A DNA stretch of 64,000 nucleotides from Mustelus asterias. Lineage: Eukaryota. The stretch covers positions 186,001-250,000 of the forward strand of contig NW_027590175.1 in assembly GCF_964213995.1 (NCBI RefSeq), read 5' to 3'. Under the pieces are notes generated by a model, which was not told where the DNA came from, ran no database searches, and saw nothing but the letters and a program-made list of their open reading frames with translations. Below are positions 4,280 through 63,950 of this stretch, one piece after another (the stretch's first letter is position 1; every line of letters starts with the position of its first letter). Position numbers and translations under genes: made by a program.

Positions 4280-4368
4280 CGTGAGTGATGAAGGAGCTGC
4301 GCTCCGAAAGCTCGTGATTTCAAACAAACCCGTTGCACTTTAACCTGGTGTTGTAGGAATTCTTACCG
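4280..4368 (+). mobile_element. Penelope-derived family A fragment with degenerate hammerhead core
   Basis: GTGATGAAGGAGCTGCGCTCCGAAAGCTCGTG followed by the family A tail. Confidence 0.65.
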
Positions 4369-4730: not shown

Positions 4731-4893
4731 TGATGATTCATTGCTCTCGTGCAACACATGAATTAAGGAGAGTGGGTATTGCTTCCTGGTCGAAAACGGG
4801 AGTGATACTTGTGGTTGGTTGAACAGGAAGACGGAAAAATCTGCCCCATTCCACAATCCTGTCAATTACCCACAACAATTCATATTTACATTG

Positions 4894-5060
4894 AGAAGTC
4901 TTACAACACCAGGCCTATTTAGAGTCAGGAGCTTTCGGGGCGCTGATAAAATAAAGCAAATTGATTTTATTATCGGAGCAAATGAACCTGTTGGACTTTA
5001 ACATGATGCTGTGAGACTTCTTATTGTGCCCACCCCAGCCCAACCCGGTATCTCGACATC
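4894..5060. mobile_element. Penelope-derived family A palindromic insertion
   Basis: Inverted arms with TSD CATATTTACATTG (4881-4893 / 5060-5072); the empty site is present in the paralogue near 51867. Confidence 0.75.
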
Positions 5061-5846
5061 ATATTTACATTGCAATTGCTGGTACCAACTGTCAGAATGA
5101 GTGAGTTACTTTCTACTGCATTAAATTTCACTGTAGCTCACCACATTCAAAGAGTAATGTTTGTTATAAGCCTTATTGTGGTAAATCTGTTGAAAAACTT
5201 CAGCTTATCACTGCTCTGCTTCCATCACACTGGAAGCTGATGTGAAAAGATGAATAATTTCAAAGCTGAACAACGTGCACAAGACTGGAAGGAGAATGCG
5301 ACTGTGAATAATTGGCACTGTGCATATTCCTGTATCCAGTCTGTGGGAGAACCAGGAGAATGAAACCCTGGTGGTCCAGTGCTTAGGGTCATAGGTCGGC
5401 TTCGATATGCCAAGATTTAAAGTTTTTGATAATCTATTTCACAAACCTGAGTTGTTTCCTGATCGAAAACAGCTCTGTCAGAAGCAGTGGAGTTAGATCT
5501 ATATTTCTGTCCGAATTGGAAATGTCACATGGGCAACAGTTCAAGAACAAACACAGATAGTGAAGGACAGTGATAGGCTGCAAAGCGCTGCCAATAGAGA
5601 TGGGGATACAAGGTCAAATCTATATGACAATGGGGTAGATTGTATCGATTAGATTGACACAAACATCTCCTAGACCTGGATCCAAATCTCAGCCAAATCA
5701 CAGGAAAGCATCTCGCTAACTTAAACGCTAAGCTCTCCGACTTCACTCAGAAACTCTGAGACAAAGCGGGATGCAGTCTGACCACTGGATCCCCCTCCAC
5801 CACTTAATAAGACTATGCTGGATCCCGAGCACTAGTTTTCAGCTGA

Positions 5847-7735: not shown

Positions 7736-7761
7736 TTCAATTGTCCAATATTATACCCGAT

Positions 7762-7788
7762 GTGCTCCAACCACTGAGCTATGGAGCC
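7762..7788 (-). pseudogene. tRNA-Thr 5' fragment
   Basis: Reverse complement GGCTCCATAGCTCAGTGGTTGGAGCAC. Confidence 0.55.
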
Positions 7789-8121
7789 AATTCCTGCGCC
7801 TAGTGCGGAGTTAGTGTATCATCATCAGTGGAGCGAAGAAGAGGTTGAATTTTCAGGTGGGTGATATTTGATGGATGTGGAAATATCCGAGGTGGAGAAC
7901 AAGGAGTTAATCGATGCGATTTGAAAGAGGAAGAATTTGACATGTGTGTCAGTTGCTTTTGTGATAAATGTCTGCCGTGTCATTCTTCTTCAGAGTTTAT
8001 TGCTGTCGTTCCATCTCCGATTTTTCCAGCTCTGAAACAGTTCATCTCTGTGGTTGGAGCACATCGGGTATAATGTTGGACAATTCGGTTAATGAAGAGT
8101 TAAATAAGAAGTTATTCACTA

Positions 8122-8692: not shown

Positions 8693-8875
8693 GGCAAAAT
8701 ACTGCGGATGCTGGAACCTGAAATAAAAATAAAAAAATGCTGGAAAATCTCAGCAGGTCTGACAGCATCTGTAGAGAGAGAATAGAGCCAACATTTCGAG
8801 TCCGGAGCTCTGACGAAGGGTCATCCAGCCATAAAACGTTGGTTCTATTCTCTCTCCACAGATGCTGTCAGGTCA
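8693..8875. mobile_element. Penelope-like family B palindromic repeat
   Basis: Arms CAGCATCTGTAGAGAGAGAATAGAGCCAAC / GTTGGTTCTATTCTCTCTCCACAGATGCTG flank CTGACGAAGGGTCATCC. Confidence 0.65.
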
Positions 8876-8984: not shown

Positions 8985-9161
8985 ATTGCGATGCAATGAT
9001 TCAAGGAAACTGGTTCCACAAACCCGTCAATTGCCAACAATAATTTACATTTGGGTTGCATGGAATTAGTGTGATAACAAAGGTATTTCGCAAAAATAAT
9101 GAACTGGACATATAGCAGTGGTGAGATTCGATCTCACGCTTCAACTAATATTACTGTCCTG

Positions 9162-9346
9162 TAAGTCCAACAGGTTTATTTGGTAGCACGAGCTTTCGGA
9201 ATACTGTCCCTTTATCAGGTGACTCATATGCTGAACGGGCAGTGCTCCGAAAGCTTGTGCTCCCAAATAAACCTGTTGGATTTTAACCTGGTGTTGTGAG
9301 ACTACTTACTGTGCTTACCCCAGTCCAACGCCTGCAACTCCACATC
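9162..9346. mobile_element. Penelope-derived family A palindrome inside a tRNA-Leu-like relic
   Basis: Two opposed hammerhead-like cores; TSD ATTACTGYCCTG (9150-9161 / 9347-9358). Confidence 0.75.
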
Positions 9347-9617
9347 ATTACTGCCCTGAACTCATCAATGGTACCAGCAGAACCTATTGATGCCGTATCT
9401 GGTGTTGCCAGTGAATAGAATCAATGGAGTAGAATTGGTTCACATGTCCCATTGAACCTCCTCGACGATTGAATCAAGGCAGATCCATAGCCTCAACCCC
9501 AATTTCCAAGTTTATCCCGATTGCCCTTCATTCAATTAGATTCCAACAACTCTCCACCTCAACCTTCCATGTCTTCATCAACTGAAGATCCACAGACCTC
9601 TGTGCGGCTACAGAATT

Positions 9618-19387: not shown

Positions 19388-19558
19388 AGAAGTCTCACAA
19401 CAACCAGGTTAAAGACCAACAAGTTTATTTGGAATCAGCAGCTGAGGGAGCGCTGCTTCTTTGAACTATTTATTCCGAATAAAGCTATTGGACTTTCAGT
19501 TGGTGTTATTAGATTTATTTCTGTGCCCACCCCACAATGCCAGCAGCTCCACCTCATC
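19388..19558. mobile_element. Penelope-derived family A palindrome (degenerate)
   Basis: Inverted arms; absent from paralogues near 925 and 46845. Confidence 0.65.
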
Positions 19559-19949
19559 ACATTCTCTCACTGTTCTTCTCTTTCTGAGTTTGTTCTTGAC
19601 ATTTCCAGCTCTGAAGTAAACTTGCAAACTTCACTCTGCTGATTCTACTGATCTGCTTTACATCAGAGTTTAAATCAGATTACTTTTAACCGTTTGCTGA
19701 GAGCAACGATTAACTTCGCAACCAACGGGAAGAGGTGCTTTCCGTTCACCCTGTTCATGAACCTCAAAATTGGAAACGGCAAATGATTCTTCTTTTCCTG
19801 AGCGGGAATTGAAAGCAAACATAACCCGGGGATGGGGTGGGGGTGGGGGTGGGGGTGGGGGGGGGGGAGGGGGGGGCGGGGGTTACTTACACAAACCACT
19901 GGACTCCAAGGGTAACGGGTGAACTGTATTTTTAAACTGACGTACCCTA

Positions 19950-22710: not shown

Positions 22711-24432
22711 CATAGAATCCCTACAGTACAGAAAGAGGCCATTCGGCCCATCGAGTCTGCACCGACAACAATCCCACCCAGGCTCTACCCCCATATCCAC
22801 CCACTAATCCCTCCAACCTACGCATCTCAGGACACTAAGGGCAATTTTTAGCATGGCCAATCAACCTAACCCGCCCATCTTTGGACTGTGGGAGGAAACC
22901 AGAGCACCCGGAGGAAACCCACGCAAACACGAGGAGAATGTGCAAACTCCACACAGGTCCCGTTATTTAAGAAGGGTAGGAAGGATAACCCGGGTAATTA
23001 TAGGCCGGTGAGCTTGACGTCCGTGGTGGGGAAGTTGTTGGAGAAAATTGTTAGAGATAGGATGTATGCGCATTTAGAAAGGAATAAACTCATTAACGAT
23101 AGTCAGCATGGTTTTGTGAGAGGGAGGTCATGCCTCACTCACCTGGTGGAGTTTTTTGAAGAAGTGACCAAAATGGTTGACGAGGGAAGGGCCGTGGATG
23201 TCGTCTATATGGACTTTAGTAAAGCGTTTGACAAAGTCCCTCATGGTAGGCTGGTGAAAAAGGTTGGATCTCATGGGATAAAGGGGGAGGTGGCTAGATG
23301 GGTGGAGAACTGGCTTGGTCACAGAAGACAGAGGGTGGTAGTGGAAGGGTCTTTTTCCAGCTGGAGGCCTGTGACTAGTGGTGTTCCGCAGGGGTCTGTA
23401 TTGGGACCTCTGCTGTTTGTGATTTATATAAATGATCTGGAAGAAGGTGTAACTGGGGTGATCAGTAAGTTTGCGGACGACACAAAATTGGCAGGACTTG
23501 CAGATAGTGAGGAGCATTGTCAGAAGCTACAGAAGGATATAGATAGGCTGGAAATTTGGGCAAAGAAATGGCAGATGGAGTTCAATCCTGATGAATGCGA
23601 AGTGATGCATTTTGGTATAAATAATGTAGGGAGGAGCTATATGATAAATGGCAGAACCATAAAGGGTGTAGATACGCAGAGGGACCTGGGTGTGCAAGTC
23701 CACAGATCCTTGAAAGTGACGTCACAGGTGGAGAAGGTGGTGAAGAAGGCATATGGCATGCTTGCCTTTATAGGACGGGGCATAGAGTATAAAAGTTGGG
23801 ATCTGATGTTGCAGATGTATAGAACGTTGGTTCGGCCGCATCTGGAATACTGCGTCCAGTTCTGGTCACCACACTACCAGAAGGACTTGGAGGCTTTGGA
23901 GAGAGTACAGAGGAGGTTTACCAGGATGTTACCTGGTATGGAGGGGCTTAGTTATGAGGAGAGATTGGGTAAACTGGGGTTGTTCTCCCTGGAAAGACGG
24001 AGGATGAGGGGAAACTTAATAGAGGTGTATAAAATTATGAAAGGCATAGATAGGGTGAACGGCGGGAATCTTTTCCCCAGGTCGGTGGTGACGTTCACGA
24101 GGGGTCATAGGTTCAAGGTGAAGGGGGGAAGGTTTAACACAGATATCAGACGGACATATTTTACACAGAGGGTGGTGGGGGCCTGGAATGCGCTGCCAGG
24201 CAAGGTGGTGGAGGCGGACACACTGGGAACGTTTAAGACTTATCCAGACAGCCATATGAACGGAGTGGGAATGCAGGGATACAAAAGAATGGTCCAGTTT
24301 GGACCAGCGCGGGCTTGGAGGGCATATTCCTGTGCTGTATTGTTCTTTGTACAGTGACCCAAGCCGGGAATCGAACCCAGGTCGCAGAAGCTATGAAGCA
24401 GCAGTGCTAACCACTGTGCTACCGTGCCACCC
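22711..24432 (-). mobile_element. HE1-like SINE split in two (22711-22956 and 24351-24432)
   Basis: CACACAG...ACAGTGACCCAAGCCGGG is continuous once the inner CR1 is removed. Confidence 0.8.
22957..24350 (+). mobile_element. young 5'-truncated CR1 with open RT frame
   Basis: Uninterrupted ORF: NYRPVSLTS, QHGF, DFSKAFD, GVPQGSVLGP, FADD; tail TGTTCTTTGT. Confidence 0.92.
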
Positions 24433-28440: not shown

Positions 28441-28585
28441 NNNNNNNNNNNNNNNNNNNNNNNNNNNNNNNNNNNNNNNNNNNNNNNNNNNNNNNNNNNN
28501 NNNNNNNNNNNNNNNNNNNNNNNNNNNNNNNNNNNNNNNNNNNNNNNNNNNNNNNNNNNNNNNNNNNNNNNNNNNNNNNNNNNNN
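28441..28585. other. assembly gap (145 N)
   Basis: Run of N. Confidence 0.99.
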
Positions 28586-33848: not shown

Positions 33849-34732
33849 GAGGTTACGTTTGAGATTCCGGTAACAAGTTAGATGGTGAAATAAGCTGTCG
33901 GGGGGAGACAGACATTTTAGATTAATGAGCAAGAAGATTTAGTTACGGAGGGAGAGAAGTAGAAAGAACAGGACCTACTTGAAATTGTTGAGAAAGTTAT
34001 GTGTTGATGTTCAAAGTGATGAATGGGTATTTTGGTCTTCATTATCAGGGGAATGAAATGCAAGAATCAAGAAGTCTGCCACAATTGTAACCTGGTTCTT
34101 CTGAGACCACAGCTGCAACATTCTGTGCAGTTTTGATCCCCACGGTGGAGAACTGATAGACTTTCATTGGAGGTTGCAGAGGGAATGTTCGAAAGATTGG
34201 ATCCTGAGATGAGGGAGTTGTCCTATGATGATGTTCCCAGGAGCAGGCTGAGGGTAAGAGAGTGGGTTTTCTGACTTTAATTAATTATTTAATTTTTCAG
34301 TTAATTTTGGATTTAAAATCGGAAGTTTTTTTCAAAACCGGAAGTCGGGCCAGGAGTGGCCTGGGGAAGTTTTTGGAGGGTTTAAAAAGGGCTTACCTTG
34401 GAGGTTCAGCTTCATTGTTCCCAGGAGCAGGCTGAGGGTAAGAGAGTGGGTTTTCTGACTTTAATTAATTATTTATTTTTTCAGTTAATTTTGGGTTTAA
34501 AATCGGAGGTTTTTTTCAAAACCGGAAGTAGGGCCAGCAGTGGCCTGGGGAAGTTTTTGGAGGGTTTAAAAGTGCACCAAAGTATACAGCGGGCAGCATC
34601 GTAGTGGGCAGCAGAGTGAGTGGGAAGTTGAGTGAGCTGTCAGGGCTTTGGCTCACAGGGCTTGGACGAGCAGGGGTGAGTTTTTGTTTCCTTACATTCT
34701 TATTAACTTTTCACTGTCTAACTTGACATAAA

Positions 34733-35671
34733 GTGTCCAGTATGAGTGTGAAACCAGTGTGTTGTTCCCAGTGTAGGATGTGGGAGGTCCTGGAGGCATC
34801 TGGCCTCCCGGACATCCACATCTGTGAGGGGTGTGTCGAGCTGCGGTTCCTGAGGGACCGTGTTAGGGAGCTGGAACTGCAGCTCGAGGATCTTAGGCTG
34901 ATGAGGGAGAATGAGGAGGTGATAGACAAGAGCTATCATCAGGTGGTCACACCAGGGCCACGGGAGGAGGCCAAGTGGGTGACGGCCAGGAAGGGTAAGG
35001 CTAGGGTGGTTGAGAGCACCCCAGTGGATTTGCCCCTGCACAACAAGTACTCCTGCTTGAATACTGCTGGGGGGGACAGCCCGCCTGGGGGAAGCAACAG
35101 TGGCCGTGTCTCCGCAGTGGAGTCCAGCCCTGTAACTCAGAGGGCTAAGGAAAAGAGGAGGAAGGCGATATTAATCGGGGACTCGATGGTGAAGGGGACA
35201 GACAGGCGTTTCTGCGGAGGTAGGCGGGATTCTCGCATGGTGGTCTGCCTCCCTGGGGCCGGGATCCAGGATGTCGCTAGTCGCGTCCCGGAAATCCTGA
35301 GGTGGGAGGGAGAGGAGCCTGAGGTAGCGGTACATATTGGTACCGCTGATGTGGGTAGGAAGGGGGAAGGGGTCATGAAAAGGAAGTACAGGGAATTCGG
35401 GAGACAGCTGAGAAAGAGGAAAGCAAAGGTAGTAATCTCAGGATTACTGCCTGTGCCACGGGAAGGTGAGGGCAGGAATGGAGTGAGGTGGAAGATGAAT
35501 GTGTGGCTGAGGAACTGGTGCAGGGGGCAGGGATTCAGGTTCCTGGACCATTGGGACCTCTTTAGGGGCAGGGGTGATCTGTATACAAAAAACGGGTGGA
35601 ACTTGAATCACACGGGGACCAATATCCTGGCCGGTAGGTTGGCTAAGGCTACTGGGGAGAATTTAAACTAG
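34733..35671 (+). CDS. CR1 ORF1p (Cys/His finger, coiled coil, SGNH-esterase-like domain)
   Basis: CSQC...HICEGC, LRDRVRELELQLEDL, LIGDS, HIGT; intact 312 aa. Confidence 0.88.
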   Translation: MSSMSVKPVCCSQCRMWEVLEASGLPDIHICEGCVELRFLRDRVRELELQLEDLRLMRENEEVIDKSYHQVVTPGPREEAKWVTARKGKARVVESTPVDLPLHNKYSCLNTAGGDSPPGGSNSGRVSAVESSPVTQRAKEKRRKAILIGDSMVKGTDRRFCGGRRDSRMVVCLPGAGIQDVASRVPEILRWEGEEPEVAVHIGTADVGRKGEGVMKRKYREFGRQLRKRKAKVVISGLLPVPREGEGRNGVRWKMNVWLRNWCRGQGFRFLDHWDLFRGRGDLYTKNGWNLNHTGTNILAGRLAKATGENLN

Positions 35672-35879
35672 ATAGGTTGGGGGGAGGGGAGCTAGAAGAG
35701 TTGACGAGGATCAAGGAACTAATTGATGGGGGGGAGGATGCAGGGGTAAGGGGAATTACAAAATTAATGGTAGAGGAGAGGGTGCAAGTGAATGAAGGCG
35801 GTAATTTAGATAAGGGAGTAGAGGGAGAGGGTGTTCGCGACTCATCAAAGCGGGTCCAGATAAAAGCTGGAATAAGGAC

Positions 35880-38800
35880 ACTTTGCCTGAATGCACTAAG
35901 CATTCGGAACAAGGTAAATGAGTTGATGGTGCAAATCAGCACAAGTGGGTACGATCTAGTGGCCATTACAGAAACAAAGAACAAACAAAGAACAAAGAAC
36001 AATACAGCACAGGAACAGGCCCTTCTGCCCTCCAAGCCCGCGCCGCTCCCCGGTCCAGGATTGAATCCTGAATCCAGGATCCCCGCCCAATTTTCCAGCC
36101 TATCTACATACCAATATCCTATCCACCGAGCTGTCCCTCACAGCTACGATGCTTTGTTCATTACAACCTATTAACTTACCCCCACCCCCCCATTCCAGAC
36201 CATGTGATCTGGCTGAAACGTGGCTGAAAGGTGACCAGGACTGGGAGATGAATATCCAGGGGTAGCAGGCGTTTAGGAAGAATAGACAGGAAGGAAAAGG
36301 TGGTGGGGTCGCGCTATTAATAAGAGATAATATCAGGGTAGTACTGAGGGATGACATAGGCTCTGAGGAACAAAACGTGGAATCATTATGGGGAGAGATG
36401 AGGAATAGTAGAGGGAGAAAGACACTAGTAGGTGTGGTATATAGGCCCCCGAATAATAATGTTGAGGTAGGGAGGGCTATAAACAAGCAGATAAGGGATG
36501 CGTGTAAAAACGGAACGGCAATAATCATGGGGGACTTCAACATGCACATTGACTGGCAGACTCAAGTCGGTAAGGGTGGAATGGAGGAAGAGTTCTTAGA
36601 ATGCTGTCGGGATAGTTTCCTTGAACAGCATGTTACGGAACCGACGAGGGAACGAGCTATTTTGGATCTGGTATTGTGTAACGAGGTAGGTAGAATTAAG
36701 GATCTTATTGTGAAGGACCCTCTTGGGTCTAGTGACCACAATATGGTCGAATTTCTGATTCAGATGGAAGAGGAGAAAGTTTGGTCCCAAACCAGTGTCC
36801 TCTGTTTGAACAGAGGGAAATATGATAGGATGAGGGATGAATTGGCTAAGGTAGACTGGGAGAGCAGGCTGGCAGGTAGGATAGCTGAGGAACAGTGGAG
36901 GATTTTTAAGGAGATCCTTTTCAGTTCTCAGCAAAAATATATTCCAGCAAAAAACAAGGATTGTAAGAAAAGGGAGAACCAGCCGTGGATAACGAAGGAA
37001 ATAAAGGAGAGTATTAAAATAAAAACAGCTGCGTACAGAGTGGCCAAAAATAGTGGAGAAACAAGTGATTGGGAAAAATTTAAGAAACAACAAAGAGAGA
37101 CTAAGAAAGCGATAAAGAAAAGAAGGATAGACTATGAAGCTAGGCTAGCAATTAATATAAAAAATGATAGTAAAAGTTTTTATAAATATATAAAAAGGAA
37201 TAGAGTGGCTAGAGTGAATGTTGGACCCTTGGAGGACGAGAGGGGGGAGTTAATAGTGGGAAATGAGGATATGGCTGAGTCTTTAAATAAGTTTTTTGTG
37301 TCGGTCTTCACAGTGGAGGACACAAATAGTTTGCCAAATATTAACGATAGAGGGTTGGCAGCAGGAGAAATACTTAATACAATTAATGTTACCAGAGAGG
37401 CAGTGCTGGGTAGACTAATGGGACTGAAGGTGGACAAGTCCCCGGGTCCGGATGGAATGCATCCCAGGGTATTGAAAGAAATGTCAGAAGTAATAGTGGA
37501 TGCGTTAGTGATTGTTTATCAAAACTCGTTGCATTCTGGGGTAGTGCCGGTTGATTGGAAAACGGCTAATGTTACGCCGCTGTTTAAAAAAAGGAAGGAG
37601 ACAAAAGGGGGGTAACCATAGGCCGGTCAGCTTAACGTCTGTAGTAGGGAAAATGCTGGAATCCATTATTAAAGAGGAAATTGCAGGGCATCTGGATAGA
37701 AATGGTTCAATCAATCAGACGCAGCATGGATTCATGAGGGGAAAGTCGTGCTTGACGAACATGTTGGATTTTTATGAAGATGTGACTAGGGCGGTTGATG
37801 GAGGAGAACCGGTGGATGCGGTGTTTTTGGATTTCCAAAAGGCGTTTGATAAGGTGCCCCATAAAAGGCTGCTGAAGAAGATTAGGGCACACGGAGTTGG
37901 GGGTAGTGTGTTAAAGTTGATTGGGGACTGGCTATCCGACAGGAAGCAAAGAGTCGGAATAAATGGGTGTTTTTCCGGTTGGAGGAAGGTAACTAGTGGC
38001 GTGCCGCAGGGATCGGTACTCGGGCCGCAACTATTTACCATTTATATAGATGATCTGGAGGAGGGGACGGAGTGTAGGGTAACGAAGTTTGCAGACGACA
38101 CAAAGATAAGTGGAAAAGTGAATCGTGTGGAGGACGGAGAAGATTTGCAGAGAGATTTGGACAGGCTGAGTGAGTGGGCGAGGATATGGCAAATAGAGTA
38201 TAACGTTGATAAATGCGAGGTTATACACTTTGGAGGAAATAATAACAAATGGGATTACTATCTCAATGGAAACAAATTAAAACATGCTACCGTGCAAAGG
38301 GACCTGGGGGTCCTTGTGCATGAGACGCAAAAGCCCAGTCTGCAGGTACAACAGGTGATCAAGAAGGCAAATGGGATGTTGGCCTATATTGCGAAGGGGA
38401 TAGAATATAAAAGCAGGGATGTCTTGATGCACCTGTACAGGGCATTGGTGAGGCCGCAGCTGGAATACTGTGTGCAGTATTGGTCCCCTTATATGAGGAA
38501 GGATATATTGGCATTGGAGGGAGTGCAGAGAAGGTTCACCAGGTTGATACCGGAGATGAGGGGTTTGGATTATGAGGAGAGGCTGAGGAGATTGGGTTTG
38601 TACTCGTTGGAGTTTGGAAGGATGAGGGGGGATCTTATGGAGACTTATAAGATAATGCGGGGGCTGGATAGGGTGGAGGCGGAGAGATTCTTTCCACTTA
38701 GTAAGGAAGATAAAACTAGAGGACACAGCCTCAAAATAAAGGGGGGTCGGTTTAAGACAGAGTTGAGGAGGAACGTCTTCTCCCAGAGGGTGGTGAATCT

Positions 38801-38909
38801 CTGGAATTCTCTGCCCACTGAGGTGGTGGAGGCTACCTCGCTGAATATGTTTAAAGCGCGGATGGATGGATTCCTGATCGGTAAGGGAATTAAGGGTTCT
38901 GGGGATTAG
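35880..38909 (+). pseudogene. CR1 ORF2 (APE endonuclease + RT), disrupted
   Basis: CLNA, ITET, GGGV, MGDFN, SDH, FADD motifs; insert at 35974-36210, TAG at 36263, frameshift near 37590. Confidence 0.9.
35974..36210 (-). mobile_element. short CR1-tailed insert in ORF2
   Basis: (TTCTTTG)n tail and 3' end like the 22957 family; GAAAC on both sides. Confidence 0.7.
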
Positions 38910-43419: not shown

Positions 43420-43615
43420 GGAACAGAAAATGTTGGAAAATCTCAGCAGAACTGACGGCATCTGTGGGGAAACCAGCGTTTCAAATCTGGATGACACTTC
43501 ATCAGATTTCCTGATTCGACACACTGGCTCTGTTCTCACTTCACAGATGCTGCCAGACCTGCTGAGATTTTCCAGTATTCTTTTTGTGTGTTTCAGGTTC
43601 CAGCCTCAGCAGTAT
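43420..43615. mobile_element. family B palindrome (degenerate)
   Basis: Inverted GGAAAATCTCAGCAG / CTGCTGAGATTTTCC arms. Confidence 0.6.
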
Positions 43616-44582: not shown

Positions 44583-44975
44583 CAGCAAATTACTGCAGAT
44601 TCTGGAACTTAAAAGACAAACTTAAAATGCTCGAAAATCTCAACAGGCATGACGGCCTCTCCGGAGAGAGAATAGAGCCAACATTTCAAATCTGTATGGT
44701 CAGTCATCAAAGCTGAAGACAGGAAAAGAGGACAAGGTTGATACTTTAAGTGTGGGAGATGCTGTGTGAGGGTGGGAGCCGTGGGTAAAAGTTGACAAAG
44801 TTGTGATGGGAAAAAAATCAAAGGGAATGTAAATGGTGGCGCGAAAAGCAAAATACTGCGGTTGCTGGAATCTGAAACAAAAACAGGCAATGCTGGAACA
44901 TCACAGCAGGTCTGGCAGCATCTATGGAGAGAGAACAGAGCCAACGTTTCGAGTCTGGATGACCCTTCGCCAGAG
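44583..44975 (-). mobile_element. family B Penelope-like tandem copies
   Basis: Two direct copies; reverse-complement core CTGGCGA-A-GGGTC-ATCCA-GACTC-GAAACGTT near 44940-44973. Confidence 0.6.
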
Positions 44976-45684
44976 GTCTGTAGATCCTCAGTTAATTAGA
45001 ATATTGAAGTTTCAGGGGAGATATTTTTGGAATCTAAGGGAATGAAGGGCCATCAGGATACGTTTGGAAATTGATGTTGATTCCTGGGATTCGTCATGAT
45101 CTCCTTAAATTGTGGAGGAGACTCCATGGGACATGTGAGCCAATCCTACTCCATTAATTCCGTTCCCTGCAGCACCAGATCTGATAGGAATCACCTCTGT
45201 TAAAAGGGTCGGTGAGTGTTCTGAGGCATTGAATTCGAGGCAGCAGCATTTGTGGGGGAAAGTGATCAAATGCCGCAAATGTCAGGTGTTCGGTTGATTT
45301 GTTTTACACGTCATGAATACTTTTTCTCGAACATGTTATTACGAAACGTTAATGCAGTAGGATGTATCATTACTCATTTTGACAGGAGAAACCAGCAGAG
45401 ACAATGTCATAGCAATTGCTGTGGGCAAAAGATGGGCTTCTGGAGCCAGTGTGGTTGTTTCTTCAGTAAACCGGATCTGCTTGCCCTGAGGTCATCACCG
45501 TGTTTCTGTAGTTCGGTGGTTATCACAAGAGCCAGGTTAATTCTGAAAATATCTGGTGAGAACGAGGAATGATGGGACGTGTACATGATAGGATTTGAAC
45601 TTCACTTCGAAAGTTCAAGTCCATCACTTTAATTCCTGGGCAGGGAATAAAGTCTCACTGTCTGTAATCCTGTTATTTATATCA

Positions 45685-45808
45685 TGATGCAAAGATGCCG
45701 GCGTTGGACTGGAGTGGGTACAGTAAGAATTCTCACAACACCAGGTTAAAGTCCAACAATCTTATTTGGAATTGCGAGCTTTCAGGAGCACTGCTCCTTC
45801 ATCAGGTT
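45685..45808 (-). mobile_element. family A Penelope end with hammerhead core
   Basis: Reverse complement CTGATGAAGGAGCAGTGCTCCTGAAAGCTCG. Confidence 0.7.
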
Positions 45809-52799: not shown

Positions 52800-53218
52800 C
52801 TTTACTGATAGCCAAGTTCTGCACACATGAGGACGGCCTCAACCGGGATATTGGGTTCATGTCACACTATCTGTAATCCCCACAGCTTGCCTGGACTTGC
52901 AGAATTTCACTGGCTGTCCTGTCTGGAGACAATACACATCTCTTTAACCTGTCTTAATGGTCTCTCCACTCACATTGTTTGTACCTTTAAGACTTGATTA
53001 GCTGTAAGTATTCACATTCCAATCATTATTCTGTAAATTGAGTTTGTGTCTTTATATGCCCTGTTTGTGAACAGAATTCCCACTCACCTGAAGAAGGAGC
53101 TTAAGGCTCCGAAATCTTGTGGCTTTTGCTACCAAATAAACCTGTTGGACGTTAACCTGGTGTTGTTAAACTCCTTACTGTGTTTATCCCAGTCCAACGC
53201 CGGCATCTCCACATCATG
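52800..53218 (+). mobile_element. Penelope-like element 3' end (ORF C-terminus, UTR, hammerhead, AATAAA)
   Basis: LIAKFCTHEDGLNRDIGFMSHYL* (stop 52876) resembles the GLN-motif C-terminus of GIY-YIG PLE proteins; it runs into the family A tail. Confidence 0.8.
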
Positions 53219-55329: not shown

Positions 55330-55585
55330 ATATAGATGTACGAGACACGTGTTTTACACAGACGGTGGTGGGTGCCTGGAACTCATCGGGAGATGCAGTG
55401 GAAGCAGATACGATGGTGAGTTTTAAGGGGCGTCTGGACAAATACATGAATAGGATGGGAATAGGGGGATGTGGTCCCCGGAAGGTTAAGGGGTTTTAGT
55501 TCAGTCGGGCAGCATGGTCGGTGCAGGCTTGGAGGGCCGAAGGGCCTGTTCCTGAGCTGTAATTTTCTTTGGTCTTTTGTTCTTA
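55330..55585 (+). mobile_element. CR1 3' end
   Basis: FTQTVVGAWN-type end and 3' UTR. Confidence 0.75.
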
Positions 55586-55669
55586 TATATTTAATGACAC
55601 CTCCGGGCCCATTGCCAACCCGCAACTGTTTGCCTATGAATGCTGATGGGGTCAAAACAGTGAAAACTA

Positions 55670-55970
55670 CGTCTCTGGGTGGTCTTAAACTGATGTGGAG
55701 ATGCCGGCGTTGGACTGGGGTGAACACAGCAAGAGTTTTAACAACACCAGGTTAAAGTCCAACAGGTTTATTTGGTAGCAAATACCAATAGCTTGAGAGC
55801 TCATTTCCACTCCATCTGACGAAGGAGCAGCGCTCCGAAAGCTAATGGTATTAGCTACCAAATAAACCTGTTGGACTTTAACCTGGTGTTGTTAAAACTC
55901 TTGCTGTGGTCTTAAAATACCAACATTTCAGTTAACAGCTGAACGCGCTGACTAATTGTGCCACAGAGAC
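55670..55970 (-). pseudogene. tRNA-Asn(GTT) split by a Penelope palindrome
   Basis: Asn halves at 55670-55690 and 55917-55970; TSD GTGGTCTTAAA. Confidence 0.8.
55812..55848 (+). ncRNA. minimal type I hammerhead ribozyme (PLE-type)
   Basis: CCAU-CUGACGA-A-GGAGC(AGC)GCUCC-GAAA-GC-UA-AUGG; all core residues present. Confidence 0.7.
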
Positions 55971-56728
55971 TGACAAAACAGCTGCTAAAGATATTCTAAA
56001 CCAGGGTGCCAATGACCCAAATTCTATTTCTGCAAAACCTGTTCCAGAACTACAGCATGACCGCAGCGTTTACGATTCTATATAAGTCTCTTTGGTTATG
56101 TTGATCCCGCAGAATCCCGCAGGATATAATACTTTCCACTCAATCACAAATAACATCATTCACAGCTGCACCGCCTTCCCAACATTGTGACCCATTTCCC
56201 TTAGGATTTCTTCCAGTATTTAATATTTTCCTGGTTTTCTCATCATTTTGAAATGAGATTCTCTTCAATGTACAACACAAATGGAATTGCAAATCTGACG
56301 GACAAACAATGGAAAACAATTCACTGGGTAACAGAAATCCCACAGTGCTCATTTCCAGATTCACAACACTCAGCTTTTCAGTCAAATGAACGAATTTATG
56401 ACTGAAAAGTTTGGAAAGTTGGTAAAAATATTGTTTGTGACTTACTCGGGTATTGTGTAAATGCTGTTTGAATATTCAGTGAGCGCACTATAATCGATCA
56501 ACTTTTTGATGAGCGTTTGGTCGGTGCATTGTTATGTTTCACCCCGTTTGGAGTATCCTGTGTCCCAGGGATGGGCAGGAAGCCGCTGATTGAAGCTGCA
56601 GTTGCCGCTTTCTGCTGGCAGCGGATGGATGATTGGAGAGTGCGTGGTAAGATCCTGCTGCTTGTCCCTGTCTCACTCGCTGTGGAACTGGGGTAGAGAG
56701 AATCATTGATCGTTTTGTTTCCCCGTCT

Positions 56729-57985
56729 ATGTTGCATTATAGGAAGGATGTGGAAGCATTGGAAAGGGTGCAGAGGAGATTTACCAGGATGTTGCCTGGT
56801 ATGGTGGGAAGGTCTGATGAGGAAAGGCTGAGAGACTTGAGGATGTTTTCGTTAGAGAGAAGAAGGTTAAGAGGTAACTTAATAGAGGCGTACAAGATGA
56901 TCAGAGGATGAGATAGGGTGGATAGTGAGAGCCTTTTTCCTCAGATGGTGATAGCTAGCACGAGGGGACATAGCTTTAAATTGAGGGGTGATAGATATAG
57001 GACAGATGTCAGAGGTAGATTCTTCACTCAGAGAGTAGTAAGGGCGTGGAATGCCCTGCCTGCAGCAGGAGTGGACTTGCCAACATTAAGGGCATTTAAA
57101 TGGTCATTGGATAAACATATGGATGATATTGGAAAAGTGTAGGTTCGATGGGCTTTAGATTGGTTTCACTGGTCGGCGCAACATCGAGGGCCGAAGGGCC
57201 TGTACTGCGCTGTAATGTTCTATGAATCAGGGCAGCACTTACTCAGTTAATGGTAGGGCGTTGAGGAGAGCTACAGAACAAAGAGATCTAGAGGTACATG
57301 TTCATAGCTCCTTGAAAGTGAGGTCACAAGATGGACAGTGGTGAAGAAGGCATTCGGCATGCTTGGTTTCGTCGGTCAGAACATTGAATACAGGAAGTGG
57401 GACGTCTTGTTGAAGTTGTACAAGACATTGGTAAGGTCACATTTGGAATACTGTGTACAGTTCTGGTCATCCTATTATAGAAAAGATATTATTAAACTAG
57501 AAATAGTGCAGAAAAGATTTACAGGGATGCTACCCGGACTTGATGGTTTGAGTTATAAGGAAAGGCTGGATAGACTGGAACTTTTTTCTCTGGAGCATAG
57601 AAGGCTGAGGGGTGATCTTATAGAAGTCTATAAAATAATGAATGGCATAGCTCAGCTGGATAGTCAATATCTTTTCCCAAAGGTAGGGAAGTCTAAAACT
57701 GGAGGGCATAGGTTTAAGGTGAGAGCGGAGTGGTACAAAAGTGTCCAGAGGGGCAGTTTTTTCACACAGAGGATAATGAGTGTCTGGAATAAGCTGCCAG
57801 AGGTAGTAGTAGAGGCGGGTACAATTCCGTCTTTTAAAAAGCACTTAGGTAGGAACATGGATACGATGGGTACAGAGGGATGTGGGCCAAATGCAGGCAA
57901 TTGGGACGAGCTTCGGGGTTTAAAAAAAAGGGTGGCATTTACAAGTTGGGCCGAAGGGCCTGTTTCCATGCTGTAAATCTCCATG
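56729..57985 (+). mobile_element. two adjacent CR1 3' fragments
   Basis: ORFs 56729, 56918 and 57338 are CR1 ORF2 C-termini. Confidence 0.85.
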
Positions 57986-58974
57986 AAATTGTGGTCAGTG
58001 CAGATTCGATGGGCCGAATGGCCTCCTTCTGCACTGTAGGATTCTATGATTCTATTGATCATAAGTCTGACGTGTCTAGGTCATGAATGTGCACAATATT
58101 AATTTAGTGTGCCCTTAAATGTCAGCCATCTCCTGGAGAAAACATCCCTTTAATTGTGAACATTAGCAAAGAGACCATGCTTCATCCAGACAAATAAATG
58201 AGTCAAGCTGAGGGAGCAAAGGATGTCAATGTCTTTAAAAAAGAGAGACAGACAGACCTGGGCCAACCTTTCCAGAGTCTGCAGCCTCCCTGGATTCACT
58301 TCCTTTCCCTTCAGTTGCTGCAAGTCCCCAATTTCCCCCAGAATGAGAAAAGAAATGGAAAGGGGGAGAAAAGAAAGTGATTTACTCACAGATGTTGGCC
58401 TCTTTTTAGGTCAAACCAAATAAACAAAGCCAAATTAAGTCAGGACAAAGTAAAAGGGGCAGCTCCCCAAAAAAGAGGGGGAACAGCCCGAACAGAAATC
58501 AAAGTTCAAAGGAAACTTAAAGACATCAAATTAAAATGTGATTATTAGGGTCGATAATGCACCCCAATCCCTGCGGTGCCCAGCGGGCGGGGAAGGTGTC
58601 AACCGCGCCCGTGGACACCGCATGCTCCCTCTCCAGGGACACCTGGCCACGAATGGAGCCGCGGTAGAGGGGAAGACAGTCAGGACGGACGGCTCCCTTG
58701 ATCGCCCGCTGCCTGGACCGGTAAATGGCGCGTTTCACCAGGCCCAGGAGCAAGTTCACGAGGAGGTCGCCATCCCGACCCTCCCCTCTCCGCACCGGGT
58801 GTCCGTAGATCAGGAGCGTGGGATTGAAGTGCAAACAAAACTTTAACAAAAGTTTCTTCAGGAAAACATAAAGGGAGTGCAGCCTAAGACACACAACATA
58901 GACATGGTCCACGGACTCCACAAGGCCACAGAAGGGGCAGTCTTCGGAGCCCGTGAACCAGTGAATCCTACGGT

Positions 58975-59297
58975 TGTGGGGGGGGGGGGGTGGGGTGGGT
59001 GGGGGGTGGGGGGGGGGGGGGTGGTTGGGGTGGTGAGGGGGGTGGGGGGGAAGGCTGGGGTGGGGGGGTGGGGGGGCGGGGCTGGGGGTGGGGGTGGGGG
59101 GGGTTGGGGTGGGAGGGGGTTGGGGTGGGTGGGGGGTGGTTGGTGTGGGGAGGGGGGTGGGGGGTGGGTGGGAGGGGGTTGGGGTGGGTGGGGGGGTGGG
59201 GGCGTGGGGGGGTGGGGTGGGGGGGTTGGGTGGGGGGGGGTTGGGGGGGGTGCGGTTGGGGTGGGGGGGTGAGGGGGGGTGGGGTGGGGGTTGGGGA
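58975..59297 (+). repeat. G-rich low-complexity tract
   Basis: About 320 bp of G runs separated by T. Confidence 0.9.
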
Positions 59298-61209
59298 GCA
59301 GCGTCGCGAGGCGACCGTGTTCCAGACAGTGAGGAGGTCCTGGTTAAAGACAGGCAACTCCTGCAAGGCGGTCGAAGCACGCCCCAGTTCGATATGCAGG
59401 AGCTGCCCGTCATAATTGAGGTTGTGCCATTGGTGGAAGAAATACGTCGCCATGGCACACCATTGTGGAGGGGGCTCAACGTAAAGGTACCTCTGCAGGG
59501 CCTGGAGACGGAAGGTCGCTATCTGAGTGCGGAGGCACACCAGACCTTGTCCGCCCTCCTCAAGCGGGAGATGCAGAACCGCAGCAGGGACCCAGTGCAG
59601 TCGATTGTCCCAGAAGAACTGCACGAGGGACGACTCGGTGGGAGGCACGAGGGAGACCCCGCCTCGCTCTGGGCAGACTCCAAAAGTGCCCCCGTGCCCA
59701 CCACCGAGCCGCTGACCTCCTCAGGGCAATCACCCCTCGACTCCGAGTCCCCCGCCGCAGGACGTACGGCGGGCGGCACGGAGCCGCCAACTCACCCCAA
59801 CCCCTCCCCGATCCCACCCCCAGGATCGGTGGAGGAGGGGTTCCCCCCGGGCTCACCTTCCCCGGTTTGCAGGCCCGCGTGCAGCGGCGACTCAGTCCCC
59901 CGCTCCGCCCCAGACGCTTGGACACCCCCGAGGTCCGGTACAACCTCCGGATTAAGGTCGGGGATGTCCAGCGTCCAAGGCCGGGACGGAGAGGACGAGT
60001 GGACCATTTCCTCGCCGCCGCCGCACGGGGACACGAACACTGGGGTGTTGCCCCAGTCCCCCGGCATACTAAAAAAGAACTCCGGGTTGTAATCGGCTGG
60101 GTGGAACGGATACTGAACCCTCCCTCCAGGACCTCCTCCCGGGTCAGGCAGACAAATGGAGAAATGGACAAAAAGGAGTAGACATGGCGGAGGGAGGGGT
60201 ACCAAAGGTCAAGCGGGATCGGCACCACCCCAGACCTGACCTCCCCCAGTGGATGGAGGTGGGGGAGGAGGGGCTCACCGGGTAGAAAGGGCGGGACGTT
60301 CGAGATGATGATCTTATGGGCGGTGGCCTCCAAAGGGTCCACCACCAGGAACGTCCCGCCCACCGTGAGCCCCCTCTCCAGGGCGAGGTGGACCGCCCGC
60401 TCGGCCTTCAAAAAGAATACGGCCCGGCCGTACATCTTAGAGGCCGCGACAATGGCTCAGGGGCCAACAACCCCAGCCATTGCCTTGACACAGGCCTCGA
60501 TGGACATGTCGGGGTGGGCATAGCACTTTACACCGAGCTGCTGCGTGAGCAACGAAAAAGGTGGCAGGGCCTTGGGAGCGGCGGGGGCTCTGGTAGCTGC
60601 CACGCCCACATAGGTGGACCGAGGAGGCTCTGCCACCGGCGATACTGGCGATGCCGCCATAGTAATCAAGGGAGTGCTATGCCCACCCCGAGACTGCCCA
60701 GATGCACGGCAGGGCGTACAAAAGGAGGGAAAAATAAGGGAGGGTAGGGTAGGTGGATGGGGGTCTAGGTGCTCTCTCCCCGGAGCGAGAGAGGGAGAGA
60801 GGAGGTCGGAGGAGCAGGAGGGAGGACGAGGGACAAGGCACGGAGGGGGGCCGGTGCCCCAGTCAGGGGGAAAGAGGGGAGGGGGTGTTAGTGTTGGGGG
60901 CAGCAGCAGTGGGTGGGGGACTTTACTCCTCCAGCCCTTTCGGGCGCAAACAGTTCAAGTCCGGGGTGTCTTCACCACCACCACCCCCCGCCCCCCTCAC
61001 TGCAGATGGAAAAAACAGTCTGAATTTACTTCACCGCCCCCTCCCTTTCAGGCACCAACCTTCTGATGATGAAGGCACCAGCCCAACCACTCAGTCCCTA
61101 GATGTTGAAGCGTGCAGTCCTCCCTCCCATAGATGGGAAGAAAAAAGAAAGAAAGTTACTCCGTGTCCTCTCTCCCTCTTTCCCTCCAGGGAGAGAGCAC
61201 CCTCCAGTG

Positions 61210-61565
61210 GACGGACGGACGGCAGGCAGGTAGGCCAGACGGCAGGCAGGCAGGCCAGACAACAGGCAGGCAGGCCAGACGGCAGGCAGGCAGGCCAGAC
61301 GGCAGGCAGGCCAAACAGGAGGCAGGCAGTCAGGCCAGACGGCAGGCAGGTAGGCCAGATGGCAGGCAGGCAGGCCAGACAACAGGTAGGCAGGCCAGAC
61401 GGCAGGCAGGCAGGCCAGACGGCAGGCAGACAGGCTGGCGAAACGGCAGGCAGGCAGTCAGGCCAGATGGCAGGCAGGCAGGCCAGACAACAGGCAGGCA
61501 GGCCAGACGACAGACAGGCAGGCCAGACGACAGGCAGGCAGGCCGGACAGCAGGCAGGCAGGCAA
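61210..61565 (+). repeat. 20-bp minisatellite (GGCAGGCAGGCAGGCCAGAC)
   Basis: About 17-18 imperfect units. Confidence 0.9.
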
Positions 61566-61618
61566 CAGCTCACCTTCCTCCCCCTTCCCACTTTCAGATG
61601 CTGGAATGAACAAATTGA

Positions 61619-61691
61619 CATTTCTTCCCGGTTTTGATCCGGGGACCTTTCGTGTGTCGGGCAAATGTGACAACCACTTCACTACAGAAAC
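61619..61691 (-). pseudogene. tRNA-Val pseudogene
   Basis: 73-nt Val scaffold; anticodon arm and T-loop changed. Confidence 0.75.
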
Positions 61692-63454: not shown

Positions 63455-63950
63455 TCACTCGTGAACTTTTTGGTGTCTCAACAGATGGGATGAAAGACTG
63501 AATCTCTTCTCACACACAGAGCAGGAGAACGGTCTCTCCCCAGTGTGAACTCGCTGGTGTCTCAGCAGCCGGGATGAAACTTTGAATCCCTTCCCACACT
63601 GAGAGCAGGTGAACGGCCTCTCCCCAGTGTGAACTCGCTGGTGTATCTGCAGGCCAGATAACTGACTGAATCCCTTCTCACACTGAGAGCAGGTGAACGG
63701 CCTCTCCCCAGTGTGAACTCGTTGGTGTCTACGCAGGGTGGATAAATTCGTGAATGGCTTCTCCCCAGTGTGGCTGCGCCGATGAACTTCCAGCTCTGAA
63801 GGGGCTCCGTATCCCTTCCCACAGTCCGCACATTTCCATGGTTTCTCCATGGTGCAGGTGTCCTTGCCTCTCTCTTGGGTGGACAATCAGTTGAAGCCTC
63901 GTCCACACACAGAACACGTGTCCAGTCTCTCCCCGCTGTGAATGGTGTGA
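63455..63950 (-). CDS. C2H2 zinc-finger array (XlCGF-like), probably damaged
   Basis: [24 protein letters not shown] repeats; one finger has lost its CxxC; in-frame TGA just upstream of 63886; continues past the window edge. Confidence 0.75.

Follow-up and report, generated by a model that had tools for sequence, protein, structure and literature searches.

A hairpin with a hammerhead ribozyme motif in the genome of the shark Mustelus asterias raises the question of whether such a short fold-back moves as a unit in its own right or is what a larger retroelement left behind when it inserted. Together with its flanking repeats the hairpin lies at 55679-55918 of the window, by which we mean the whole stretch of 64 kb that was analysed, and the initial annotation placed it in a mobile ribozyme-bearing hairpin family. 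The feature is real; we read it as an insertion footprint of the kind known for the Penelope-like element (PLE) class, and not as a new mobile ribozyme hairpin: with high probability, 55691-55908 is a single, ordinary, dead-on-arrival PLE insertion in the pattern known for this class.

As had been annotated, each arm is the exact reverse complement of the other over 55 bp (55725-55779 and 55854-55908), and the inverted-repeat search of the window that returned them found the other perfect inverted repeats up to 1.5 kb apart to be 20-25 bp long, an artefact of an N run being set aside. For the 226-nt stretch a fold of -134.4 kcal/mol is predicted (z = -16.7), which none of 200 shuffles equalled. 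What had gone unnoticed is that the homology of the arms runs on to 70 bp (55725-55794 against 55839-55908) with two mismatches, at 55845 and 55853, and reaches inward through the 3' half of the hammerhead motif; given two random mismatches in 70 bp, a perfect run of at least 55 bp has a probability of 0.13, and the perfect run is therefore not special. It had likewise been missed that the left arm carries 34 nt absent from the right arm, the PLE 'tail' (55691-55724, minus strand), which belongs to the inverted left copy only. The right arm contains 46 nt, the hammerhead core included, that are absent from the left, and reaches further 5'. Since each arm holds sequence missing from the other, neither was simply copied from the other, and the two extra stretches imply that both outer ends are 3' ends of the element, while the centre joins two 5' truncations. 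The unit consists of an inverted, 5'-truncated copy of the element's 3' end (55691-55794, minus strand), with its tail outermost and its inner end inside the AAGCU of the hammerhead, and of a forward, 5'-truncated, tail-less copy (55793-55908, plus strand), whose final 3 nt (55906-55908) overlap the right copy of a flanking duplication.

Logan contigs from four of 20 listed sequencing runs (X1 to X4) were aligned to the stretch at 85% likeness. Family contigs exit the stretch before 55793 (52 records in X1, 38 in X3 and 30 in X4) and the arm homology ends at 55794, so that the head-to-head junction can be placed at the 2-nt overlap 55793-55794, a presumed microhomology. A G at 55730, common to both arms, is rare, with at most 1.4-4.5% of family contig depth in all four runs. 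The shared variant had been taken to suggest that one arm was copied from the other; it is real, and its rarity indicates, as far as the letters can tell, one source element and a common template for both arms, but simple copying between the arms is ruled out by what each of them contains.

An 11-bp direct repeat, which the initial annotation also missed, flanks the unit (55679-55689 and 55906-55916), a length attained by 12 of 5000 breakpoint pairs drawn at random in the window. At 55917 the contigs read C in place of A (308 of 374 of depth in X1, 11.7 of 16.7 in X3 and 24.4 of 24.4 in X4), which lengthens the repeat to 13 bp in those alleles. The left copy then spans 55679-55691 (plus strand, 11 bp exact), of which 55691 also matches the element tail, and the right copy 55906-55918 (plus strand), exact over 55906-55916, mismatched at 55917 in the window and matched there in X1, X3 and X4; element and duplication overlap by 1 nt at the left end and by 3 nt at the right. 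This repeat of 11-13 bp is likely, from its sequence, to be a target-site duplication. A single one surrounds the whole unit and the centre is without any. It is not proven by an empty site, because no empty-site allele is among the 15 contig joints listed of 483. The flanks are 52-57% AT, against 55% for the window, and so are not notably AT-rich.

The main allele of X1, X3 and X4 differs from the window at three sites in the right flank (55917, 55925 and 55959), while X1 contigs match 55560-55713 exactly; either a distinct haplotype or a local assembly error would account for the differences. The left border is spanned by X1 record 1 and the right border by X4 record 31, each with 21-22 element letters and thus below the 31-letter bar, which suggests that the insertion is also carried by samples that depart from the window at these three sites of the right flank. 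Over 55885-55974 the X4 allele has three differences, and the three X4 flank differences fall within that span; all being accounted for by the flank, the right arm of X4 should have the same G.

The insertion itself is without any ORF remnant, and its link to PLEs runs through a sister subfamily copy. This longer 5'-truncated insertion (52805-53216, plus strand) comprises the end of an RT/GIY-YIG ORF, the 3' UTR, a hammerhead core and the tail, and the left arm of the fold-back is 92% identical to it over 92 nt (53125-53216). Its first part, 52805-52873, encodes the last 23 codons and the stop ahead of the 3' UTR. An unindexed protein search with this peptide gave eight proteins at E up to 0.001, one of them named from Chiloscyllium punctatum; a second-step search from one of the proteins (P0007) gave eight longer proteins out of 109 candidates, named from Mustelus asterias and Heptranchias perlo, and also led to GIY-YIG clusters of the ESM Atlas (31% of members in the best named set). 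The window peptide is identical at 20 of 23 residues to the C-terminus of P0012. Pfam finds RVT_1 in P0012 and P0014 and GIY-YIG in P0009 and P0014, the latter with E values of 2.5e-4 and 7.6e-4, just under the Pfam cut-off, and the stretch at 52805-52873 is the only tblastn match in the window. The Penelope derivation given in the initial annotation is thus borne out by the ORF end of the sister copy. Other searches were empty within their scope: a word-indexed protein search with a 42-aa stretch gave six candidates, none at E up to 10; Pfam gave no family on the 23-aa and 42-aa pieces and none of relevance on P0001-P0008; an exact-pattern scan of metagenome contigs gave no matches; and a partial literature collection held no paper, by title or opening abstract, on this shark PLE family.

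As the sister copy retains the end of the RT/GIY-YIG protein, the family is an endonuclease-positive (EN+) PLE, and on sequence grounds it is a canonical one, the single ORF with RT and C-terminal GIY-YIG being a property of the family and not of 55691-55908. By eye, P0012 has a DKG motif and a CX4CxxC linker, and PMC8557442 assigns a CX2-5CxxC linker upstream of GIY-YIG to the Neptune and Nematis clades, so the parent probably belongs to one of these two. Two gene models of Mustelus asterias, P0015 and P0016 (NOXP20-like and a USP8 isoform), contain a piece of this PLE endonuclease, through either exonisation or an annotation artefact.

If the fold-back were a mobile unit, its sisters should share its ends and its junction. 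The window holds seven loci of the PLE family, of which four, including 55691-55908, are inverted pairs; each pair has a tail on one arm only and a junction of its own, and a clear duplication of 11-14 bp surrounds three of the four. The pair at 9150-9358 has decayed hammerheads in both arms, a one-arm tail and a 12-bp duplication with one mismatch. Two older pairs also have a tail on one arm, one at 4880-5072 with an exact 14-bp duplication and one at 19388-19561 with no clear duplication. The evidence for these two oldest pairs comes in part from alignment by eye: the inverted arm at 4880-5072 is weak by BLAST (a 16-nt match, E 0.48) and rests on alignment, and self-BLAST found no arm-to-arm homology in that pair and 15 nt only in the pair at 19388-19561. 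The single copies are, besides the longer one, a tailed copy at 45682-45807 (minus strand), with a U inserted before the hammerhead GAAA, and a tail-less copy at 4286-4366 (plus strand), truncated within the hammerhead core.

Beyond the window, the element drew 11,805-45,970 contig records per run, and the depth of its bins exceeds that of the flanks by four to five orders of magnitude, a ratio not to be read as copy number; the PLE family is very abundant and high-copy. The 15 joints listed of 483 are all different and 14 of them join the arms at different places; where present in X1 they have a depth of 137-1771, against about 190 at the left flank, and some of them could be alignment artefacts at 85% likeness. 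Contig exits pile up at the tail end (465 X1 records before 55691) and at about the tail base (in X1, 248 behind 55892 and 390 before 55741), where a loose consensus agrees up to about CTGTG; the letters beyond both exit points are AT-rich and agree poorly. Pile-ups and varied joints are consistent with each insertion having built its own hairpin from two favoured 3' start points. Neither the four window pairs nor the 15 joints listed of 483 have the shared ends and shared junction of a mobile fold-back or MITE-like family. That sister hairpins have different junctions argues for their formation de novo at insertion and against a mobile hairpin family, and the initial annotation is not supported on this point.

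The anatomy is instead that of a known class. Craig et al. (2021; PMC8557442) give an inverted 5'-truncated copy and a one-sided tail of 30-40 bp as usual for PLEs; for rotifers, Arkhipova et al. (2013; PMC3846280) describe inverted pLTRs, a 31-bp tail and duplications of 8-10 bp; in PMC8969392 inverted pLTRs and 3' extensions serve as curation features; and PMC4209133 reports minimal hammerheads on opposite strands 100-700 bp apart. The fold-back has what defines an EN+ PLE insertion in such accounts: a 5'-truncated copy with an inverted copy adjacent, a tail of 30-40 bp at one end and a duplication of variable length. Like complex EN+ PLE insertions as these papers present them, it has a head-to-head inverted 5'-truncated copy, a 34-nt tail at one end, a short duplication around the unit and microhomology at the junction; unlike them, both copies are only about 100-115 nt long and lack an ORF, which makes the unit a near-pure hairpin. 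The duplication, at 11-13 bp, is slightly longer than the 8-10 bp of the rotifer elements (PMC3846280).

How PLEs integrate is still called unresolved in PMC8557442 and PMC11167929. In the latter, Frangieh et al. (2024) report on PAc, a Poseidon element of the anole Anolis carolinensis, that both target strands are cut and extended, that two RT start sites bound the tail, that hammerhead mutants insert normally, and that cleavage requires the protein. Applied by analogy from these in vitro data on the Poseidon clade to a shark element of another clade, the sequence of events would be as follows. The GIY-YIG endonuclease would nick the two strands with a stagger of about 13 nt, and the element end would be reverse-transcribed from both target 3' ends. 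One cDNA would start at the tail end, where the match to the target is 1 nt, and the second 34 nt further inward, at the tail base, where it is 3 nt. Both cDNAs would stop after about 100-115 nt and be joined through the 2-nt microhomology. In L1 twin priming, too, both target 3' ends prime, and an inversion joined by microhomology results with the duplication outside, the two pieces being non-overlapping parts of one RNA. The present locus resembles L1 in its two-end priming, its microhomology-joined inversion and its outer duplication, and differs in that the pieces overlap by 70 nt. While the anatomy, the family identity, the varied junctions and the two preferred 3' ends are observations, the order of priming and the use of one RNA molecule or of two are inferred.

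The comparison with PAc (PMC11167929) holds in the two 3' start points that bound the tail, and two-strand priming would yield the same anatomy; the hammerhead of PAc is also dispensable for insertion (PMC11167929). It differs in that the shark relative has a CX4CxxC linker of Neptune/Nematis type and that the tail lacks a significant stem-loop (z between -0.48 and 1.58 in the four copies), unlike the AC-rich stem-loop of the anole element. Primer and template match over 1 and 3 nt here, while PAc starts at non-homologous sites.

An unlikely alternative, proposed for head-to-head PLE junctions in PMC3846280, is self-priming, in which the cDNA runs from the tail end past the hammerhead, snaps back and copies itself, an asymmetric central deletion then removing 46 nt of the left arm. 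This would directly explain the rare G in both arms, and by eye the tail-less arm reaches at least as far 5' as the tailed arm in all four window pairs, a number too small to carry weight. Self-priming requires the additional deletion, however, and offers no reason for the end of the copy at the tail base, a point at which it matches the target over 3 nt and at which single copies (such as 4286-4366) end as well.

The preferred insertion model might also be modified by later homogenisation of the outer 55 bp, if arm-to-arm conversion through hairpin or template-switch repair had spread the private G after insertion; we regard this as improbable. It is in keeping with a perfect outer 55 bp and with both mismatches falling in the inner 15 bp that adjoin the loop (p = 0.043), and also with the A at 55853 of the right arm, whose share of family depth is no more than 0.2-0.5%. 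The outcome would be no different, however, with a rare source element or with a single RT error on a template common to both arms; the perfect run is not unlikely by itself, as calculated above, and the right arm of X4 is implied to have the same G.

The hammerhead is the feature on which a self-propagating hairpin would depend. The motif is of minimal type I (55812-55848, plus strand), its letters read as described in the initial annotation, and the cut is predicted after A55844. Stem I has 4 bp (55812-55815/55845-55848), followed by the core CUGACGA (55816-55822), an extra A (55823) after A9, a stem II of 5 bp (55824-55828/55832-55836) and GAAA (55837-55840); the palindromic AGCU at 55840-55843 replaces stem III, in accordance with the type that had been assigned. 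A conserved core, an extra nucleotide after A9, G10.1-C11.1 and a palindromic 15.2-16.2 are all four of the features named in PMC4209133. With the PLE minimal hammerheads of that paper the motif shares the CUGANGA/GAAA core, the extra nucleotide between 9 and 10.1 and the G10.1-C11.1 pair, as well as the 4-bp helix I, the palindromic remnant of stem III and the occurrence in dispersed truncated copies; its stem II of 5 bp compares with 7-8 bp in the Schistosoma families, and it differs in having no same-sense partner copy in cis. An Rfam covariance scan at E up to 1 returned no hammerhead family among its 20 matches. Those over the locus, to mir-624 and a group II intron domain, are sub-threshold, with the miRNA matches far below the gathering score, and were rejected as generic hairpin matches.

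Whether the motif can act where it stands is doubtful. The core letters are intact, as the annotation had it, but the 'intact' ribozyme does not extend to the predicted fold of the insertion: the pairing probability of stem I drops from at least 0.97 for the isolated motif to 0.02 when the forward arm is folded and to 0.000 for the complete insertion, and a penalty of 14.6 kcal/mol is predicted for forcing the hammerhead fold in the whole fold-back RNA. In the predicted fold both the cleavage site and the 3' strand of stem I are taken up in pairing with the inverted arm, so that in the full insertion, or in a read-through transcript, the hammerhead would be masked by the inverted arm. Nor is there folding support for a stable active dimer, as the predicted energies are -20.5 kcal/mol for a double-hammerhead dimer, -23.2 for two monomers and -30.5 for a non-catalytic stem II dimer.

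Covariation of stem I between copies had also been noted, and consists of a single compensatory pair (U-A/C-G). Among the five window copies and nine pairs, two pairs have a two-sided change, which 201 of 500 shuffles match, and 103 of 500 shuffles reach the covariation score of the five copies; within these five copies the covariation is not above what shuffles give. For one of the copies cited, at 9188-9221, the CAC/GUG stem is as annotated, while the core reads CUGAUAA and has lost G8. In the X1 family contigs, variants of at least 10% occur at none of 23 positions of core, stem II and palindrome against five of 14 others (p = 0.005), and at a threshold of at least 5% at two of 23 against five of 14 (p = 0.08), where the two variable positions form a CpG pair and G12 is one of them; both the likeness filter and contig ends near 55816 bias these counts. 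The base at the cut site varies from A to U in X1. Both are permitted by the NUH rule for hammerhead cut sites. On the preferred reading the hammerhead is a passenger from the pLTR of the parent, and the parent element would by itself be expected to keep the core conserved.

A self-propagating fold-back family, MITE-like or retrozyme-like, that moves as hairpin RNA processed by an active hammerhead is accordingly a very remote prospect, even with an intact core in the copy at 55812-55848, the conservation in X1 that is significant at the 10% threshold and weaker at 5%, and a very abundant family. There is precedent in that non-LTR retrozymes derive from PLEs and occur in one chondrichthyan, according to a preprint (bioRxiv 10.64898/2026.07.22.740005), and the locus is like the metazoan elements described there in being short, non-coding, PLE-related and equipped with a type I hammerhead. 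In retrozymes, however, units that each have a hammerhead are repeated head to tail, while this locus is head-to-head with one core and no tandem, and no unit can therefore be excised between two sites. Its junctions also vary from locus to locus, the fold-back is predicted to mask the motif, a full core with both stems is kept in only two of the seven window loci, and core conservation would be expected from the parent anyway. We speculate, as a long shot of much the same order, that some fold-back units, 55691-55908 included, could be moved in trans, as hairpin RNAs, by the PLE protein; such units would amount to a head-to-head class of retrozyme, in which the inverted arm keeps the hammerhead shut until a protein binds or the RNA dimerises, and in which the 70-bp stem feeds small-RNA silencing of the parent family.

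That two independent insertions of this very abundant family came to lie side by side in opposite orientation by chance is hardly conceivable, given one duplication around the whole unit and none at the centre, a variant of 4.5% or less shared by the arms, 0 of 55 differences between them (against 5, 8 and 11 for three other window copies) and the recurrence of the inverted-pair pattern in four of seven loci.

As a passive transposon footprint, the single locus matters little alone. It is nonetheless a clean natural record of Penelope integration, with duplication, one-sided tail, primer microhomologies and junction all within 240 bp, and the family is abundant enough for a census of shark assemblies to separate two-strand priming from self-priming. 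For annotation, a hammerhead that looks intact and lies within a perfect hairpin is, in such genomes, usually the truncated end of a PLE.

The window contains several further repeats. A second family with a CUGANGA...GAAAC-like motif occurs at 8759-8872, 43449-43556, 44642-44714 and 44912-44978 and forms head-to-head hairpins of its own (8759-8796 against about 8834-8871, and 43449-43519 against 43525-43556); by its sequence it is probably another PLE end family. A 25-bp perfect inverted repeat (7750-7774 and 8050-8074), with arms about 275 bp apart, may be a tRNA-derived repeat or a MITE, one arm resembling the 5' part of a tRNA. Dispersed tRNAs are found between 3051 and 61691 (nine genes by ARAGORN and 14 Rfam tRNA matches), and several of them lie in larger blocks that are duplicated. 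The N run at 28441-28585, an assembly gap, gave spurious palindromes. Long ORFs at 22870-24357, 34727-38909 and 56700-57976 we take to be remnants of CR1/L2-type LINE ORF1 (esterase-like) and ORF2 (endonuclease, RT), and the minus-strand fragments at 58526-60750, broken by a G-rich low-complexity array at about 58946-59335, presumably belong to an L1/Tx1-type element. A tandem array with a 20-nt period lies at 61161-61636, and an ORF at 63455-63886 (minus strand) encodes a C2H2 zinc-finger array with TGEKPF-type linkers.
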